64,000 nucleotides of DNA from Verrucomicrobiota bacterium (GTDB lineage Bacteria > Verrucomicrobiota > Verrucomicrobiia > Limisphaerales > JAIPKD01). The translations under genes and the position numbers were made by a program. A model generated the notes under the pieces. It worked only from the letters and a program-made list of their open reading frames with translations. It did no database searches and had not been told where the DNA came from. Location: positions 211 through 64,210 of the forward strand of contig JAIPKD010000006.1 of NCBI GenBank assembly GCA_021733835.1. The letters run 5' to 3'. Shown here piece after piece: positions 56,633 through 60,694 of this stretch; the first letter of the stretch is position 1; each line of letters opens with the position of its first letter.

Positions 56633-58525
56633 ATGCATCCGGAAAATGTAAAAGAGCTGGAGCTTATACTTAAGCAATTACAAGTCGGCGCAATGGGCCT
56701 GCAAGGGCCGCGCGCCAGAAAAGTGCGACAGCAATCAGGTGATGTGATGACAATCAGCATCCCTACGCACGTGAGGGACTGGCCGTTGGACCAGATGCCC
56801 TTGTCGGTAAGGTTGAGCGGCGTGCTTCAGAAAATGGGGTTCAAGAAGCTGGGCGACCTGCATGGATTGTCGTATATCCAGGTTCTGAGCATGCGCAACT
56901 GCGGACGCCGTTCGATTTTCGAGTTGGTCGAGCTTGTACGCCGTCTTCAAGCCGGAGAATTTGATCCTGTTAAGGTAAAGGGTTCGGGCATCGATTATCT
57001 CACTGAATTTTTGGATGATATAATCGATGAGCTCGGCGAGAGGGAGCGCCAGATGCTCATGTTGAGAATGGGCGCTGACGGCGGTCCGCCGATGACGCTT
57101 GAAGAAGTGGGTTCGAAGTATGGATTGACACGCGAGCGGGTGAGACAGGTTGTCGACCTCCTTGTATTGAAGATATTGCGAAGCGGCGGGCCTCCGATTC
57201 AGGACTTATTGGAAGACCTGGCCGAGCAATGTCTATCGGCGATTTGCCCATTGACGCCTGAATTATTCGTTAAATGGCTGGGCATAACGCCTGCCAAGCA
57301 TTGCAGGTATGCGGTGCCGTTTTATATTCGTCTCTTTAGCGCCCTTGAGCCCAGCCTGCCCGGGTGGTCGGAAGGGCAAAAGCCCAGTCCGAATCCGGAA
57401 ATGTGGATCAAGGAAATCTCGCGGCCGTTGACCGAGATTCTCAAGGGCAGTGTTTCGCCGCTCTCTTTCGAGAACGCATACAAGAAATTGAAGTCCAACG
57501 CGAATTTATCGAAATTGACGCCGGGCGAATTTCTTGCGGCGCTGAAGCAGAGCAGAACATTGGCCGTCGAGTTTCCGGAACCCGAAAAACCGGTGATTCG
57601 GCTTTCGAGTTTACGGATACACGACTGGGTTCAGCGCGTATTGTTGAACTCCGAAGACCCGATGACGCCTCAAGAGATAATCAAGAGCGCGAAAGAATTG
57701 TTCTCCGAGAACTTCCCGGATATATCGATCGGTGGCCTCAGGAATTCGCTGAAGCCCGAACACGGGATATTCCTGCTTGACCGTCGTGCATTCGGAACGC
57801 GGAAGCATATCAAATTGCCTGAGCGCCTTTGGAGGAGGGCGAGAAACGACGTGGCTAAACTGCTTCAGAAGGAGGAACGTCCTGTTTCCACACGGGAAAT
57901 CATCAGGGACAACACGTTCGGTTGGGCATGTTTGACGAATGTTTATGAATTGGCCCAAGTATTAAGGGATGATACAAGATTTACGGACTTGGGGCGCTTT
58001 CTGTTTGCCCTTGAGTCTTGGGGTATGGGTGAACGCGAGCATATTAAAGACCTTATTCCCAAGATTCTCAAGGAAAAGGGTCAGCCCATGACCGCCAATC
58101 AGATTCTGGATGAATTAAAAGCGCGACGATCAGTCGGACGCGCCACGATTTCGGCCGTCATACGCAATCATCCGGACATAAAACGTTTGGGTTACGGCTA
58201 CTATGGGTTGAAGGAGTGGAAGGAGATGCCCAAAGAATTCATCGTTAATCAACCTTCGCTGATCAGCAAGAAGGTGATTTCACTTAAACCGCCGGTGTCC
58301 TTCGCCGAGGTTTGCAAGGAACTTGATATACCGGTCAAAGGCAAGTTGGCGGATGATCTTTGGAACACCCTCCAGGTGTCAAGCCGAATAAAAACCAAGG
58401 ATGAAGAGAAATCGGCGTCTGCGTTGATAGTCCAACGTAATGCTCGCGTAGCCGAAAAAAAGAAAAGCGCCGGCGCAAAGGCAAAGAAGAAGAAAAAGAA
58501 GGTAAGAAAGAAAAAGACCGCTTAG
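56633..58525 (+). CDS. Multi-HTH DNA-binding protein: RpoA alpha-CTD-like HhH + sigma-70 region 4 + three HARE-HTH-like modules + Lys-rich tail
   Basis: LSVRLSGVLQKMGFKKLGDL..MRNCGRRSIFELVELV is alpha-CTD-like. ERERQMLMLRMG..MTLEEVGSKYGLTRERVRQVVDLLVLKIL is region 4. Three repeats carry an xPMTxxEII.. opening; the second and third end in a G..L.EW/SW-type motif (e.g. GQPMTANQILDELK..LGYGYYGLKEW). The C-terminus is KKKSAGAKAKKKKKKVRKKK. Confidence 0.65.
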   Translation: MHPENVKELELILKQLQVGAMGLQGPRARKVRQQSGDVMTISIPTHVRDWPLDQMPLSVRLSGVLQKMGFKKLGDLHGLSYIQVLSMRNCGRRSIFELVELVRRLQAGEFDPVKVKGSGIDYLTEFLDDIIDELGERERQMLMLRMGADGGPPMTLEEVGSKYGLTRERVRQVVDLLVLKILRSGGPPIQDLLEDLAEQCLSAICPLTPELFVKWLGITPAKHCRYAVPFYIRLFSALEPSLPGWSEGQKPSPNPEMWIKEISRPLTEILKGSVSPLSFENAYKKLKSNANLSKLTPGEFLAALKQSRTLAVEFPEPEKPVIRLSSLRIHDWVQRVLLNSEDPMTPQEIIKSAKELFSENFPDISIGGLRNSLKPEHGIFLLDRRAFGTRKHIKLPERLWRRARNDVAKLLQKEERPVSTREIIRDNTFGWACLTNVYELAQVLRDDTRFTDLGRFLFALESWGMGEREHIKDLIPKILKEKGQPMTANQILDELKARRSVGRATISAVIRNHPDIKRLGYGYYGLKEWKEMPKEFIVNQPSLISKKVISLKPPVSFAEVCKELDIPVKGKLADDLWNTLQVSSRIKTKDEEKSASALIVQRNARVAEKKKSAGAKAKKKKKKVRKKKTA

Positions 58526-58552: not shown

Positions 58553-58589
58553 GCGGTACCGGTTTTGAATCGCCGGTACCGCTTTTTTT
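58553..58589 (+). terminator. Rho-independent terminator
   Basis: gcggtaccgg-ttttgaatcg-ccggtaccgc is a perfect 10-bp stem followed by TTTTTTT, located 28 nt after the stop at 58525. Confidence 0.85.
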
Positions 58590-58754: not shown

Positions 58755-59804
58755 ATGAAAAAATCGCGTAGAGATGAAAACAAGCAGTCGCGTAGGGATT
58801 TCTTGCGAAAAGGCATGGAAGGAATGCTTGCATTCGGCGCCGGCGGCGCAGCCGGAGTATTTGCCGATGACACGATACGCCCGAAACCCGGAAACCATAG
58901 CGCGATTCCAAACGCCTCTCCGACAAGTGGCTATGACATGTCGAAGTTGGCGGAGGTCGATCCGGCGCTTATTCGATATCGCGAGAAGGGGAGATTCGGC
59001 TGCGATATGGAGGAATCGGTTGCGTTATGGATTGATAACGGCGACCTCGTGTATGTATGCGGCGATGAATGCGTAAATGTTTTTGACCGTGTCGGTAGAA
59101 AGAGAACAACGTTGAAGGTCGGCGGCAGACCGCGGGCGGTGTGTTCCGTCGACGGTGATAGGATATTGGTGGCGGTCGGAGACAGGATTGTGATCCTCGA
59201 TTCGGAAGGAGGAGTCTTAAGCGATACAGGATCGCTGGGTGAGCGTTCCGTTGTGACGTCAATTGCGGTTGGCGGGGAAGGAACGATTTTCGCAGCCGAT
59301 GCCGGAGAAAAGTGTATTTGGAAGATAAGCGCCGATGGGAAGGTGCTTTCGAAAAACAGAGGAGACACCGAGGGCGGTGGTGTCGGGTTTGTGATACCGA
59401 GTCCCTTTTTCGATATTGCATTTGACGCCGACGGCCTGTTATGGGCGACGAATACCGGTGAACACCGCATCGAGGCATATAACGAAGAAGGCGAGATTTC
59501 GCGATCCTGGGGGAAGCCGACGATGGCGATCGAGGGCTTTTGCGGCTGTTGTAATCCGGTTAACATATCGATTTTGAATGATGGTCGGTTTGTGACCGCG
59601 GAGAAGGGACTGCCGAGGGTGAAGGTTTATTCGGCGGATGGTGAATTCGAATGTGTAGTGGCGCCGCCGAACTCGTTCCCGGGATTAATGAGGAAAAGAC
59701 CTGCCGGGCGGATGCGTGCGCTGGACGTCGCTGTAAATTCCGATGGCGAGGTTTATGTATTGGATACCGGTTCGAGTCAGGTTAGAATCTTTGTTACAGA
59801 TTAA
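58755..59804 (+). CDS. Tat-signal NHL-repeat-like beta-propeller protein
   Basis: Twin-arginine motif SRRDFLRKG plus a hydrophobic region. Repeated blade motifs (ILVAVGDRIVILD, IFAADAGEKCIWKI, LLWATNTGEHRIEAY, RFVTAEKGLPRVKVY, VYVLDTGSSQVRIF). Unusual GFCGCCNP motif. Confidence 0.7.
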   Translation: MKKSRRDENKQSRRDFLRKGMEGMLAFGAGGAAGVFADDTIRPKPGNHSAIPNASPTSGYDMSKLAEVDPALIRYREKGRFGCDMEESVALWIDNGDLVYVCGDECVNVFDRVGRKRTTLKVGGRPRAVCSVDGDRILVAVGDRIVILDSEGGVLSDTGSLGERSVVTSIAVGGEGTIFAADAGEKCIWKISADGKVLSKNRGDTEGGGVGFVIPSPFFDIAFDADGLLWATNTGEHRIEAYNEEGEISRSWGKPTMAIEGFCGCCNPVNISILNDGRFVTAEKGLPRVKVYSADGEFECVVAPPNSFPGLMRKRPAGRMRALDVAVNSDGEVYVLDTGSSQVRIFVTD

Positions 59805-59858
59805 GCCGTGCCGCCGGATGTGTGCGGCACGGGTTTGAAAAAAGTAAAATCCCTAAGA

Positions 59859-60110
59859 ATGAAAGAGCGTAATAACGATATACATGGTTCGGCCGAAAAG
59901 GCGCAAAGCCGCAGAGAATTTGTAAAGGTCGGTATGAGATGGGGGTTCCTTGGGGTGCTGGGTGTCTTGGGCGCCGTCCTCGGCGCCAGGAGCGTGAACG
60001 GCGAGGATTGTTATTACACGATTCCATGTAACGGCTGCCGTGCGTTCGAGTTTTGCCGGCTGCCGAAGGCGTCGAATTTTAAAAGTGGTAATCCTTTGAC
60101 GAACCGATGA
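59859..60110 (+). CDS. Small (83 aa) Tat-signal Cys-motif protein
   Basis: SRREFVKVG twin-arginine motif plus a hydrophobic stretch, then CYYTIPCNGCRAFEFC (CX5CX2CX5C). The stop overlaps the next start (ATGA). An alternative GTG start exists at 59808. Confidence 0.55.
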   Translation: MKERNNDIHGSAEKAQSRREFVKVGMRWGFLGVLGVLGAVLGARSVNGEDCYYTIPCNGCRAFEFCRLPKASNFKSGNPLTNR

Positions 60111-60694
60111 GCAAGGCGGAGAAAGAGAAAGGCATCGAGCGCGGACACTCAAGGCGCGGATTCCTGAGCGGCGGTTTTCGAGGGGCGATGTTGTTCTTTT
60201 TTGGGATGGTAACCGGATTCTTTACCGGGAAGGTGCGCGCTGAACGTACGGTTTGGCAGATTGACCCATTTAAATGCGTGTTTTGCACAAACTGCGCGAC
60301 GGAATGTGTGTTGGAACCATCCGCTGTGAGGTGCGTACAGTATTACCCGATCTGCGGCTACTGCAAGCTGTGTACCGGATATTTCGATCCGCAACCGATA
60401 AATCTGGACACAGGCGCCGAGAACCAGATTTGTCCGACCGGCGCGATAATCAGGACAAAGCTCGAGGACCCGTATTACGAGTACACGATCGATGAGGAGC
60501 TGTGCATCGGTTGCGCCAAGTGCGTCGAGGGTTGTGAGTTGTTTGGTAACGGCTCGTTTTTCTTACAGGTCAGGCATGATAAGTGCGTAAATTGCAATGA
60601 ATGCGCGATAGCGGTTTCGTGCCCCGGTCAGGCTTTCGTGCGTGTTCCGGCCGGTGATCCTTATCTTTTGAAAACAAGGGAGACTGCGGGATGA
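60107..60694 (+). CDS. Tat-signal poly-[4Fe-4S] ferredoxin (NapG/MauM-like)
   Basis: SRRGFLSGG twin-arginine motif. Cluster motifs CVFCTNCATEC, CGYCKLC..CP, CIGCAKCVEGC and CVNCNECAIAVSCP. Confidence 0.8.
   Translation: MSKAEKEKGIERGHSRRGFLSGGFRGAMLFFFGMVTGFFTGKVRAERTVWQIDPFKCVFCTNCATECVLEPSAVRCVQYYPICGYCKLCTGYFDPQPINLDTGAENQICPTGAIIRTKLEDPYYEYTIDEELCIGCAKCVEGCELFGNGSFFLQVRHDKCVNCNECAIAVSCPGQAFVRVPAGDPYLLKTRETAG

Follow-up and report, generated by a model that had tools for sequence, protein, structure and literature searches.

A short twin-arginine protein with an RseC-type four-cysteine motif, a candidate iron–sulfur relay subunit of a NapG/NapH-like operon

The closest described counterpart of the cysteine motif considered here is found in E. 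coli RseC (RseC/MucC, PF04246), where the residues are arranged as C20-x5-C26-x2-C29-x5-C35. The N-terminal domain of RseC reconstitutes an O2-sensitive [4Fe-4S] cluster for which the first Cys is dispensable, and its interaction with RsxB and RsxD was predicted from a two-hybrid system, while the role of RseC is still debated, with an accessory assembly factor among the proposals (PMC11729352). In the literature searched, this study was the only one found with the term 'CX5CX2CX5C'. RseC is about 140–160 aa long, with a cytoplasmic Cys domain followed by a further domain and two C-terminal helices, and its partner is the Rnf/Rsx complex. A related pattern, CX6CX2CX5C, is present in the loop of endonuclease III and MutY, where it ligates one [4Fe-4S] cluster and is located C-terminally within a cytoplasmic HhH DNA glycosylase fold. 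With regard to export, HiPIP and the Tat-anchored Rieske proteins are small iron–sulfur proteins that receive their cluster in the cytoplasm before Tat exports them, and the uncleaved Tat signal of Rieske proteins serves as their membrane anchor. Polyferredoxins of the NapG/MauM type work in the periplasm together with a NapH-like membrane protein, and the leader of E. coli NapG has the pattern RRxFLRxxxR with a Gly/Ala-rich helix. Finally, MauA and QhpC are small Cys-rich exported subunits encoded together with a beta-propeller, and the mau clusters also contain MauM- and MauN-like genes.

The 64,000-nt stretch of Verrucomicrobiota DNA analyzed here (the window) contains a small gene placed between a propeller gene and a polyferredoxin gene (Table 1). 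A protein identical to its product is recorded as a 'hypothetical protein' of a Verrucomicrobia MAG. Literature searches on the operon found nothing relevant.

Table 1. Positions of the small gene, its sequence elements and its neighbors in the window
Feature	Position	Strand	Basis
NHL-like six-bladed beta-propeller, 349 aa, Tat-type leader	58755..59804	+	Pfam NHL and SGL matches
Intergenic RNA hairpin, propeller stop to small-gene ATG	59801..59838	+	dG -21.7 kcal/mol, z = -3.4
Small gene, Tat-type four-Cys protein, 83 aa	59859..60110	+	ORF, ATG start; conserved family
Twin-arginine core SRREFVK and invariant Arg R27 (+9), RRxFxxxxxR	59907..59939	+	family alignment
Uncharged 16-residue Gly/Ala/Leu-rich helix, aa 28-43, before R44; probable signal-anchor	59940..59990	+	alignment, AlphaFold2
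C51-x5-C57-x2-C60-x5-C66, then L68-P69-x-A71; proposed [4Fe-4S] site	60009..60071	+	invariant Cys, RseC spacing
ATGA overlap, small-gene stop and ferredoxin start	60107..60110	+	TGA 60108-60110, ATG 60107-60109
NapG/MauM-like Tat polyferredoxin, 195 aa, 17 Cys, four cluster motifs	60107..60694	+	Fer4 family matches, synteny
NapH/MauN/NosR-type integral-membrane FeS protein, 469 aa	60691..62100	+	TIGR02163 napH E = 2.6e-16, Fer4_5 E = 2.3e-16
BamB-like PQQ_2 beta-propeller, N-terminal membrane helix, 604 aa	62112..63926	+	PF13360 E = 3.2e-31

The ORF is a genuine gene that is kept by purifying selection, and the family to which it belongs is large and unnamed. The small protein was matched at E ≤ 1e-3 by 114 representatives of clusters defined at 50% identity, all of them 65–125 aa long, and R18, R27, C51, C57, C60, and C66 were invariant among them. 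The dN/dS ratio had a median of 0.28 over 85 pairs and was 0.16 for the closest pairs. The first-pass annotation of the window had named an absent or broken reading frame, or a lack of selection on the Cys positions, as outcomes that would speak against the peptide; instead, the ORF was present and in frame in 70–71 of 77 evaluable orthologous loci, the Cys codons were invariant, and dN/dS was about 0.16–0.3. Neither Pfam nor NCBIfam gave a family at or near threshold for the window protein or for any of the 115 members, and a profile search of PDB sequences returned just a chance Ig match (E = 1.8), with no PDB entry describing the family. Members could be annotated by the signature RRxFLRxxxR, 16 uncharged residues, a basic residue, CX5CX2CX5C, and x-LPxA.

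The same annotation had left the start codon open between the ATG at 59859 and a GTG at 59808. The ATG is favored because of the position of the RR pair in the family and because a hairpin covers the GTG. Counted from the ATG, the RR pair begins at residue 18, while the family median is 11 (interquartile range 9–15); from the GTG it would fall at residue 35. The GTG was rejected as a start since it lies inside the stable hairpin and clashes with the N-terminal lengths of the family. None of 200 shuffled sequences was as stable as this hairpin, which was rejected as a canonical terminator since no T-run follows it. At the other end of the gene, the proposed overlap of its stop codon with the ATG of the Tat ferredoxin was confirmed as the ATGA sequence at 60107–60110.

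The twin-arginine leader that had been proposed for the small protein is well supported by the family alignment. The core S17-R18-R19-E20-F21-V22-K23 (59907–59927) contains a nearly invariant RR pair, with arginine at residue 18 in 116/116 sequences and at residue 19 in 114/116, while R27 is again arginine in all 116. The positions after the pair are mostly E (89/116), F (80/116), and L, F, or I (100/116). Across all six reading frames of the window, the pattern [ST]RRx[FL][LIVF][KR] is present only twice, in the small protein and in the upstream NHL-like protein. The core is followed by the uncharged stretch WGFLGVLGVLGAVLGA (aa 28–43) and then by R44, a position which is basic (R or K) in 100/116 members. 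The protein has both the RR motif and the Sec-avoidance features of a Tat substrate, for which a moderately hydrophobic segment of 13 or more uncharged residues and a basic residue after it are expected. The curated Tat signal models did not reach their cut-offs, as the protein scored 12.8 bits against TIGR01409, under the cut-off of 16.7, and PF10518 matched only 4/115 family members (best E = 0.13). The motif RRxFLRxxxR is shared by E. coli NapG and by 60 of the 78 distinct partner-ferredoxin signals. The most reasonable inference from such a leader is export in a folded or cofactor-loaded state, as had been suggested before. The use of Tat argues for a cofactor loaded in the cytoplasm.

The alignment further suggests that the twin-arginine helix is probably an uncleaved N-terminal anchor rather than a cleaved leader. 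The distance from RR to R44 is constant, with no gaps in any of the 116 sequences, and these sequences have no conserved AxA signal-peptidase site in the alignment. At the end of the helix, positions -1 and -3 are usually R, K, or L, and AlphaFold2, run with an alignment of 115 sequences, modeled a helix from 18 to 47 with pLDDT of 96–98. The absence of a conserved cleavage site differs from E. coli NapG, which has a canonical A-x-A site. If the leader were cleaved near residues 43–45, the mature part would have about 38–40 aa, rather than the about 45 aa estimated earlier.

The compact motif of four Cys reported in the first-pass annotation was confirmed as CX5CX2CX5C, with the sequence CYYTIPCNGCRAFEFC (C51, C57, C60, C66) at 60009–60056. 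In the six-frame translation of the whole window this pattern was observed once, versus 0.08 occurrences expected from the Cys frequency. The exact spacing is kept in 111/116 family members and the four Cys are called invariant in the alignment, with rare variants (L008, L042, and L059) that lost only the first Cys and kept CX2CX5C. After the last Cys, the LPxA element is also strongly conserved, with L in 102/116, P in 111/116, and A in 113/116 sequences. Besides the four Cys, L, P, A, and one basic residue, no other conserved residues were found in the mature part of the 116 sequences. The Cys domain was modeled by AlphaFold2 with pLDDT of only 53–59, which is too poor for judging cluster geometry.

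The spacing of the four Cys is the same as in RseC, both families keep the CX2CX5C core, and the loss of the first Cys in the family variants parallels the dispensability of this residue in RseC. The two proteins are also similar in that they are small and membrane-anchored, that they accompany a polyferredoxin subunit of a membrane redox complex, a role which is predicted for the small protein, and that their Cys regions are poorly modeled by AlphaFold. On the other hand, the order of the parts is different, since in the 83-aa protein the N-terminal Tat helix precedes the Cys domain; this domain is predicted to be periplasmic rather than cytoplasmic, and the partner is a NapG/NapH-like module instead of Rnf/Rsx. 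When the small family was aligned to RseC by hhalign (sequence against profile), the four Cys aligned, with a probability of 2.8%. The Pfam RseC_MucC profile did not match the window protein and matched 4/115 members, with a best E of 0.13 and 12.7 bits versus the required 24.4, and only over profile positions 10–33. Neither comparison gave significant evidence of homology to RseC. The matches listed in a protein search with E. coli RseC were all enterobacterial, with at least 73% identity.

Other iron–sulfur and cofactor proteins were also compared with the small protein. The Cys residues of endonuclease III bind a [4Fe-4S] cluster. Its loop and that of MutY share with the small protein a run of about 17 residues with four Cys and the same x2 and x5 spacers, while the first spacer is 6 there and 5 in 111/116 members of the small family, which has no glycosylase domain; PF10576 (EndIII_4Fe-2S) matched none of the 115 members. 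The leader type is the same as in the NapG/MauM polyferredoxins and a periplasmic location next to the NapH-like protein is predicted as well, but the small protein has neither the CX2CX2CX3C motif nor the ferredoxin fold, and one putative cluster versus four. A bacterial 2x[4Fe-4S] ferredoxin (Fer4) was rejected, as CX2CX2CX3C(P) is absent and there was no Fer4 match. The Cys patterns and folds of HiPIP and Rieske proteins are unrelated, there was no Pfam match to them, and the small mature domain has just about 40 aa; HiPIP identity was rejected on motif and context. A haem-binding protein was rejected in the absence of CXXCH in the small protein.

The gene order around the small gene is conserved far beyond the window. 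The adjacency of the small gene and the propeller gene was found in at least eight phylum-level groups (Verrucomicrobiota, Planctomycetota, Lentisphaerae, Bacteroidota, Poribacteria, Latescibacterota, KSB1, and Aminicenantes), and further in bins labeled Anaerolineales, Limnocylindrales, and Acidoferrum. When the NHL-like propeller was used as an independent bait, a member of the small family adjoined it in 70–71 of 77 evaluable loci, and all 12 contexts reached via the small protein itself showed the same operon. The small gene either separates the propeller gene from the ferredoxin gene or lies upstream of the propeller gene, and it is almost always within one gene of the NapG-like Tat polyferredoxin and the NapH-like membrane FeS protein. 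The earlier proposal of translational coupling to the ferredoxin holds in the window, and in loci with the same gene order the spacing between the two genes is from -20 to +4 nt in 27/46 cases; across the family, however, the constant neighbor is the propeller, which adjoins in 80/80 loci carrying the small gene, while the ferredoxin is a direct neighbor in 51/80. In one natural fusion with the ferredoxin (P0163), the small protein stands where the Tat leader of the ferredoxin would be, which suggests that the small protein is located in the same compartment as the ferredoxin and next to it. The propeller has an invariant F-x-G-C-C-N-P motif (aa 262–268, nt 59538–59558), and in 89 sequences the conserved residues were W252, FxGCCNP, T281, E283, and K290. 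The BamB-like propeller is a conserved downstream member of the operon, found at the same place in loci L001, L007, L008, and L094, and fused to the NapH-like protein in L095. Related loci also co-encode NuoEF-like and GltD-like NAD(P)H modules, and an ABC exporter is encoded nearby in some of them.

Taken together, we propose, with a probability of about one half, that the small protein is inserted by Tat, probably stays uncleaved, and serves the propeller as a single-cluster electron-relay subunit of a NapG/NapH-like module. The three options considered in the first-pass annotation were an FeS or metal carrier, a cross-linked cofactor subunit, and an anchor; the first is favored as an FeS carrier because the identical CX5CX2CX5C motif of RseC binds [4Fe-4S], and the last because the helix length is invariant and a conserved signal-peptidase site is absent, while the cross-linked subunit is not. 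As an electron relay, the protein would be loaded in the cytoplasm with a [4Fe-4S] cluster held by its four Cys, in the way seen in vitro for the RseC motif, and would then be translocated by Tat. The uncleaved twin-arginine helix would remain as an N-in/C-out anchor and hold the cluster 5–15 residues above the membrane's outer face, where it could pass electrons one at a time between the propeller enzyme and the NapH-like/NapG-like chain. This chain would probably be fed, in related loci, by the co-encoded NuoEF-like and GltD-like NAD(P)H modules.

A bolder extension of this proposal, which we regard as rather unlikely, is that the small protein is a periplasmic counterpart of RseC at the outer face of the NapH-like protein, which would hand low-potential electrons to the Cys-Cys of the propeller GCCNP motif. 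The electrons would come from a cytoplasmic Stn/Bfu-like NuoEF and GltD, and the operon would be an unrecognized NAD(P)H-driven periplasmic reductase system, which would include the BamB-like propellers and a MacB-type ABC exporter. The placement of a cluster beside a disulfide would resemble ferredoxin:thioredoxin reductase. The operon itself is found widely across Planctomycetota, Verrucomicrobiota, Lentisphaerae, Bacteroidota, and several candidate phyla.

Short proteins are regularly overlooked or kept as 'hypothetical', and this family, which comprises over 100 clusters at 50% identity, has no Pfam, NCBIfam, or PDB entry. The small gene marks an uncharacterized operon, with propeller-related loci numbering at least 582 when one genome per species is counted, in phyla that degrade polysaccharides and are abundant in the environment. 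If it did bind a [4Fe-4S] cluster, the small protein would be among the smallest Tat-dependent FeS proteins and the RseC-type site would be in use on both sides of the membrane, which would give a handle on the role of this site and on NapH/NosR-type electron transfer to periplasmic partners.

It is equally conceivable that the four Cys coordinate Zn or Cu, or that they make two disulfides. The foremost alternative, although an unlikely one, is a non-redox structural or assembly subunit, in which Zn or two disulfides would form a rigid knuckle and the peptide would tether or stabilize the propeller and/or the ferredoxin, or serve as an assembly accessory. The constant position of the small gene beside the propeller gene, often with a stop-start overlap of 1 or 4 nt, and the fixed length of the helix, which is described as Gly-zipper-like, are in agreement with a structural role. 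Four loci (L010, L017, L018, and L069), in which the propeller directly precedes the ferredoxin and the small gene is missing, would also be consistent with it, as they suggest that the subunit is not strictly indispensable or that it is encoded elsewhere in those genomes. A domain with only disulfides or Zn would not need Tat, however, since Sec export and periplasmic oxidation would be enough, and all other redox proteins of the operon are FeS proteins. The comparison with RseC can be read both ways, as the debate about its role leaves room for an accessory function, while RseC is also the sole tested protein of the exact spacing and it binds [4Fe-4S] (PMC11729352).

It is less probable still that the small protein acts as a Tat escort or as a cluster or metal donor, which would help to fold, load, or pilot the propeller or the ferredoxin, or would give metal to the Cys-Cys site of the propeller, without a permanent place in the electron path. 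The HMM of the small family also picks up the ferredoxin leaders, with scores of 19–31 bits, and RRxFxxxxxR is common to both kinds of leader, which could point to such a function. In the layout with the propeller followed by the small gene, 43 of 51 propellers are without an RR motif of their own; these propellers nevertheless retain N-terminal hydrophobic anchors, so that no hitch-hiking would be needed, and the ferredoxin has its own Tat leader. Moreover, the natural fusion implies a permanent association, and the known Tat chaperones NapD and TorD are cytoplasmic and signal-less.

The analogy to quinoprotein amine dehydrogenases drawn in the first-pass annotation did not hold up, and we consider it very improbable that the small protein is a cofactor-bearing light subunit of the propeller enzyme, like MauA or QhpC, with Cys cross-linked or modified after translation into the catalytic center. 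The operon does resemble such systems, as it pairs a beta-propeller with a small exported subunit rich in Cys and also encodes a ferredoxin like MauM and a membrane protein like MauN; the ABC exporter near some loci is a further similarity. In contrast to MauA and QhpC, which have the quinone-forming Trp, cross-link partners, and maturation enzymes encoded in their operons, in the mature part of the small protein neither Trp nor Tyr is conserved as a source of a TTQ or CTQ quinone, and neither Asp nor Glu as a partner for thioether cross-links to Cys. Likewise, none of the 12 Pfam-annotated loci had a radical-SAM (QhpD-like), di-haem MauG-like, MauD/E-like, or subtilisin-like (QhpE) gene, and the 40 aa with 4 Cys found here compare with about 130 aa and 12 Cys in MauA, so that membership among these small subunits was rejected. 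The last alternative, that the ORF arose by chance or was mis-annotated between two genuine genes, for which only the small size and the missing database family speak, has a negligible probability against at least 114 representatives, the invariant residues, a dN/dS well below 1, and a position kept in at least eight phylum-level groups.

The gene proposed in the first-pass annotation was found where it had been placed, on the plus strand and encoding 83 aa, and its TGA overlaps, as had been noted, the ATG at 60107 of a 195-aa ferredoxin, which likewise starts with a twin-arginine leader and bears four Cys motifs of the ferredoxin type. The order of the protein sequence is MKERNNDIHGSAEKAQ-SRREFVK-VGMR-WGFLGVLGVLGAVLGA-RSVNGED-CYYTIPCNGCRAFEFC-RLPKASNFKSGNPLTNR. 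Searched exhaustively with phmmer, 1.84 billion cluster representatives yielded 114 related proteins at E ≤ 1e-3, all 65–125 aa long and all spanning the leader through the Cys motif. In the alignment of 116 sequences R18, R27, C51, C57, C60 and C66 are invariant, residue 19 is arginine in 114, and L68, P69 and A71 are kept in 102, 111 and 113 sequences, respectively, while the exact CX5CX2CX5C spacing is present in 111. A few divergent members have lost the first Cys, leaving only CX2CX5C, and some of these carry a distant extra Cys. Among 5.8 billion proteins, the family profile recovered only small proteins that were unnamed or annotated as "hypothetical" and one 216-aa fusion, and nothing among the PDB sequences was matched by the profile. 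The family is large, unnamed and broad in phylogeny, and it offers a tractable entry to a putative periplasmic redox system.

Features of the small-gene region and of related loci (window coordinates unless a locus is named)
Feature	Coordinates	Strand	Remarks
Small gene, 83 aa	59859 (ATG)–60110 (TGA)	+	ORF reading of the window
NHL-like propeller	58755–59804	+	F-x-G-C-C-N-P motif at 59538–59558; large family of its own, at least 582 loci
Partner-ferredoxin N-terminus	60107–60250	+	also in related loci
Intergenic RNA hairpin	59801–59838		dG -21.7 kcal/mol, z = -3.4, 0/200 shuffles equally stable
630-aa protein upstream of operon	56633–58525	same as operon	RNA polymerase alpha-CTD-like segment, sigma-70 region 4, HARE-HTH/winged-helix region, poly-Lys tail
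Terminator-like hairpin, then T-run	58553–58582		between 630-aa protein and operon
NuoE/NuoF-like + GltD-like (NuoG-type N-terminus)	L006 15746–19795; L007 15758–19977; L094 11830–15821; L095 13053–16222		operon end, several phyla
NapH-like/BamB-like fusion	L095 9867–12986		1039 aa
Divergent members, first Cys lost	L008/L009 10001–10297; L042 5451–5780; L059 5645–5971		only CX2CX5C left
Member with R-H core	L083 4315–4599		70.7 bits

The Tat-type leader claimed from the first reading was borne out, as the N-terminus fits the Tat consensus (SRREFVK) and continues into a 16-residue uncharged stretch and then a basic residue. Such a stretch with a basic residue behind it is a known Sec-avoidance feature. 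The leader is of the NapG type: the Arg at +9 of the pattern RRxFLRxxxR is invariant in the family, and 60 of 78 distinct partner-ferredoxin leaders share the pattern, as does E. coli NapG. In line with this common leader type, the small-protein HMM scores ferredoxin leaders at 19–31 bits. In one otherwise typical member (L083) R-H replaces R-R in the Tat core (CSRHEFWRAAARY), a change that can be expected to make Tat recognition less efficient, unless it is a sequencing error. Export of the small protein by Tat, with its Cys domain outside, is likely. AlphaFold2 modeled residues 18–47 as one helix (pLDDT 96–98), in which L31, L34 and L41 are kept in 87–95 of 116 sequences; among the same sequences there are no indels between the RR pair and basic residue 44, and the alignment contains no conserved A-x-A site, the positions behind the helix being mostly R, K, S, G or L. 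The fixed length and strong conservation, together with the lack of this site, suggest that the leader is probably retained as an N-in/C-out anchor. The linker between the helix and the first Cys is only 5–15 residues long, so that any entity bound by the cysteines would be held close to the outer membrane surface. For a signal peptide, the N-terminus of the partner ferredoxins varies unusually little in length: the WQIDP motif follows RR at a distance of 34 residues in 68 of 78 distinct sequences. Many of these leaders lack an A-x-A site, and the ferredoxin, too, may keep its Tat helix uncleaved as an anchor; E. coli NapG has the same RRxFLRxxxR pattern but a canonical cleavage site.

The Cys motif of the small protein was also considered as a ferredoxin motif or a haem site, and it fits neither. 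The same spacing is found in RseC, a protein of the E. coli SoxR-reducing system, which reads C20-DVKAS-C26-SS-C29-ASRAG-C35 in the MG1655 genome, and in the literature searched the formula CX5CX2CX5C was used for no other protein. In endonuclease III from the same genome the arrangement is C187-x6-C194-x2-C197-x5-C203, and these four cysteines ligate a [4Fe-4S] cluster. Hence, a run of about 17 residues with such spacing is a proven holder of one cubane cluster. The RseC N-terminal domain reconstitutes an oxygen-sensitive cluster with the 420-nm band typical of [4Fe-4S]; its first Cys is neither conserved nor required, which reduces the core to CX2CX5C, its Cys region is modeled unreliably by AlphaFold, and its interaction with the polyferredoxin subunit RsxB and with RsxD was predicted from a bacterial two-hybrid system (PMC11729352). 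The small family behaves similarly, as its rare variants lose the first Cys alone (L008, L042, L059), it is linked to a polyferredoxin, and AlphaFold2 models its Cys domain poorly (pLDDT 53–59). Alignment of the small-family profile to RseC by hhalign matched all four cysteines with a probability of only 2.8%, and the Pfam RseC_MucC model touched 4 of 115 members, at E ≥ 0.13 and within profile positions 10–33 only; common descent is not shown by these profiles.

The RseC N-terminal domain is the closest functional analog, while the motif geometry is closest to RseC and the Endo III/MutY cluster loop, the export logic to HiPIP and Tat-anchored Rieske proteins, and the leader to NapG; the small protein fell outside all of these families by profile scores, architecture or motif. 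It is therefore best described as a probable small FeS subunit that depends on Tat, its RseC-type site being placed in a new architecture and compartment. We estimate the probability that the four cysteines hold one [4Fe-4S] cluster, loaded before export, at about 0.55. A structural Zn or disulfide knuckle, or a role as an assembly factor only, is a rather unlikely alternative, because the use of Tat would be hard to reconcile with it.

The order of the operon was identical in all 12 contexts reached via small-family members: one to three BamB-like PQQ_2 propellers, the NHL-like propeller (~350 aa), the small gene, the Tat polyferredoxin (~190 aa), the NapH-like membrane FeS protein (~450 aa), another PQQ_2 propeller and, often, a NuoE/NuoF-like protein with a GltD-like protein that has a NuoG-type N-terminus. 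Some loci also carry, upstream of these genes, an ABC ATPase and a MacB/ADOP-type permease (~1100 aa). To avoid circularity, the NHL-like propeller was searched as an independent bait in one genome per species, which confirmed at least 582 loci. The best 80 of these come from Verrucomicrobiota, Planctomycetota, Lentisphaerae, Bacteroidota, Poribacteria, Latescibacterota, KSB1 and Aminicenantes, and from bins labeled Anaerolineales, Limnocylindrales and Acidoferrum. When the small-family HMM was run against all stop-to-stop ORFs of these 80 loci, 70 of the 77 that could be evaluated had a member beside the propeller, three further loci being cut by contig ends, and one locus (L019) had a divergent copy, so the gene is conserved at homologous loci. 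It was missing by this search from six loci, in four of which (L010, L017, L018, L069) the propeller is followed directly by the ferredoxin, while in two (L064, L084) the entire ferredoxin module is missing.

Among 90 loci examined, 51 have the layout propeller, small gene, ferredoxin, and 29, mostly from Verrucomicrobiota, have the small gene first, followed by propeller and ferredoxin, which makes the propeller, not the ferredoxin, the constant neighbor. Stop/start overlaps of 1 or 4 nt between small gene and propeller gene are common, and in the former layout the spacing to the ferredoxin is -20 to +4 nt in 27 of 46 measurable cases. Layout and propeller targeting go together: of the 29 loci in which the small gene comes first, 28 have a propeller with an RR-type N-terminus, and of the 51 in which it follows the propeller, 43 have a propeller with a hydrophobic anchor that lacks RR. 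The window is among the remaining 8 loci, with the less common arrangement of RR propeller, small gene and ferredoxin. In its genomic position the small gene is firmly bound to the GCCNP propeller and to the NapG-like/NapH-like pair. Literature searches found no published work on this operon, which appears uncharacterized.

In P0163, a single 216-aa sequence from a 1052-nt ENA contig, the small-family protein up to LPEAIASRQ is joined straight to the mature ferredoxin (YVWQLDPAKC...), whose own leader of ~45 aa is missing, which places the Cys domain beside the ferredoxin in the same compartment. The fusion also implies a permanent association, and both propellers and ferredoxins carry their own targeting sequences; a Tat escort or metal donor is therefore improbable.

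The conserved gene thus combines a Tat-type N-terminus with an invariant four-Cys domain. In the mechanism we propose, the cysteines would take up one [4Fe-4S] cluster ahead of export, Tat would translocate the protein so that the Cys domain ends outside, and the leader would stay as the membrane anchor. The last step is more tentative: the cluster could relay electrons, close to the membrane, between the NapH-like/NapG-like chain and the propeller. The most likely role of the protein, as one more FeS subunit in a relay, is a conceptually familiar one. The NHL-like propeller, for which Pfam and NCBIfam gave only generic NHL, SGL and weak ScyF-like matches, has invariant W252, F262-x-G-C-C-N-P268, T281, E283 and K290 (89 sequences), and its vicinal Cys-Cys suggests a redox-active disulfide or metal site. 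In L095 a single protein combines the NapH-like part with the BamB-like PQQ_2 propeller downstream of it, which suggests that these two also form a complex. NuoEF-like and GltD-like genes are present downstream in L006–L008 and L093–L095, suggesting NAD(P)H as the ultimate electron donor; the window contig stops just behind the last propeller gene, before their position. Their composition is similar to that of the electron-bifurcating Stn/NfnABC-type modules (PMC7483475).

The analogy to small subunits of quinoprotein amine dehydrogenases, drawn in the first-pass annotation, has a real basis at the operon level, where a propeller and a small exported subunit rich in Cys occur alongside MauM- and MauN-like proteins. 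However, the small family is without a conserved Trp, Tyr, Asp or Glu, and a maturation enzyme is absent from every annotated locus, so the analogy was abandoned and a light subunit that bears the cofactor, as in MauA or QhpC, is highly improbable.

The protein is 100% identical to a "hypothetical protein" from a Verrucomicrobia MAG and had no match in Pfam or NCBIfam. Translated in six frames, the 64 kb contain CX5CX2CX5C once, with 0.08 expected, and the strict Tat core twice, in the small gene and in the gene directly upstream. Pairwise Nei-Gojobori dN/dS on codon alignments of the small gene from related loci had a median of 0.28 (85 pairs), a maximum of 0.65 and a value of 0.16 in the closest pairs, well below 1 as expected for purifying selection. 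A chance ORF is refuted by these conservation data. The start had been left uncertain between ATG 59859 and GTG 59808; the ATG is now preferred, because it puts the RR pair at residue 18, nearer to the family range (median 11, interquartile range 9–15) than residue 35, and because the GTG lies within a stable hairpin. A terminator-like hairpin lies between the operon and the 630-aa protein upstream, and this protein was not found at the equivalent position of related loci. The hairpin at the GTG lies immediately 3′ of the propeller-gene stop and 20 nt 5′ of the ATG, and it is not a canonical terminator, as no T-run follows. It may act as an intercistronic stabilizer or translation-control element; most related loci have a gene overlap at this site instead.
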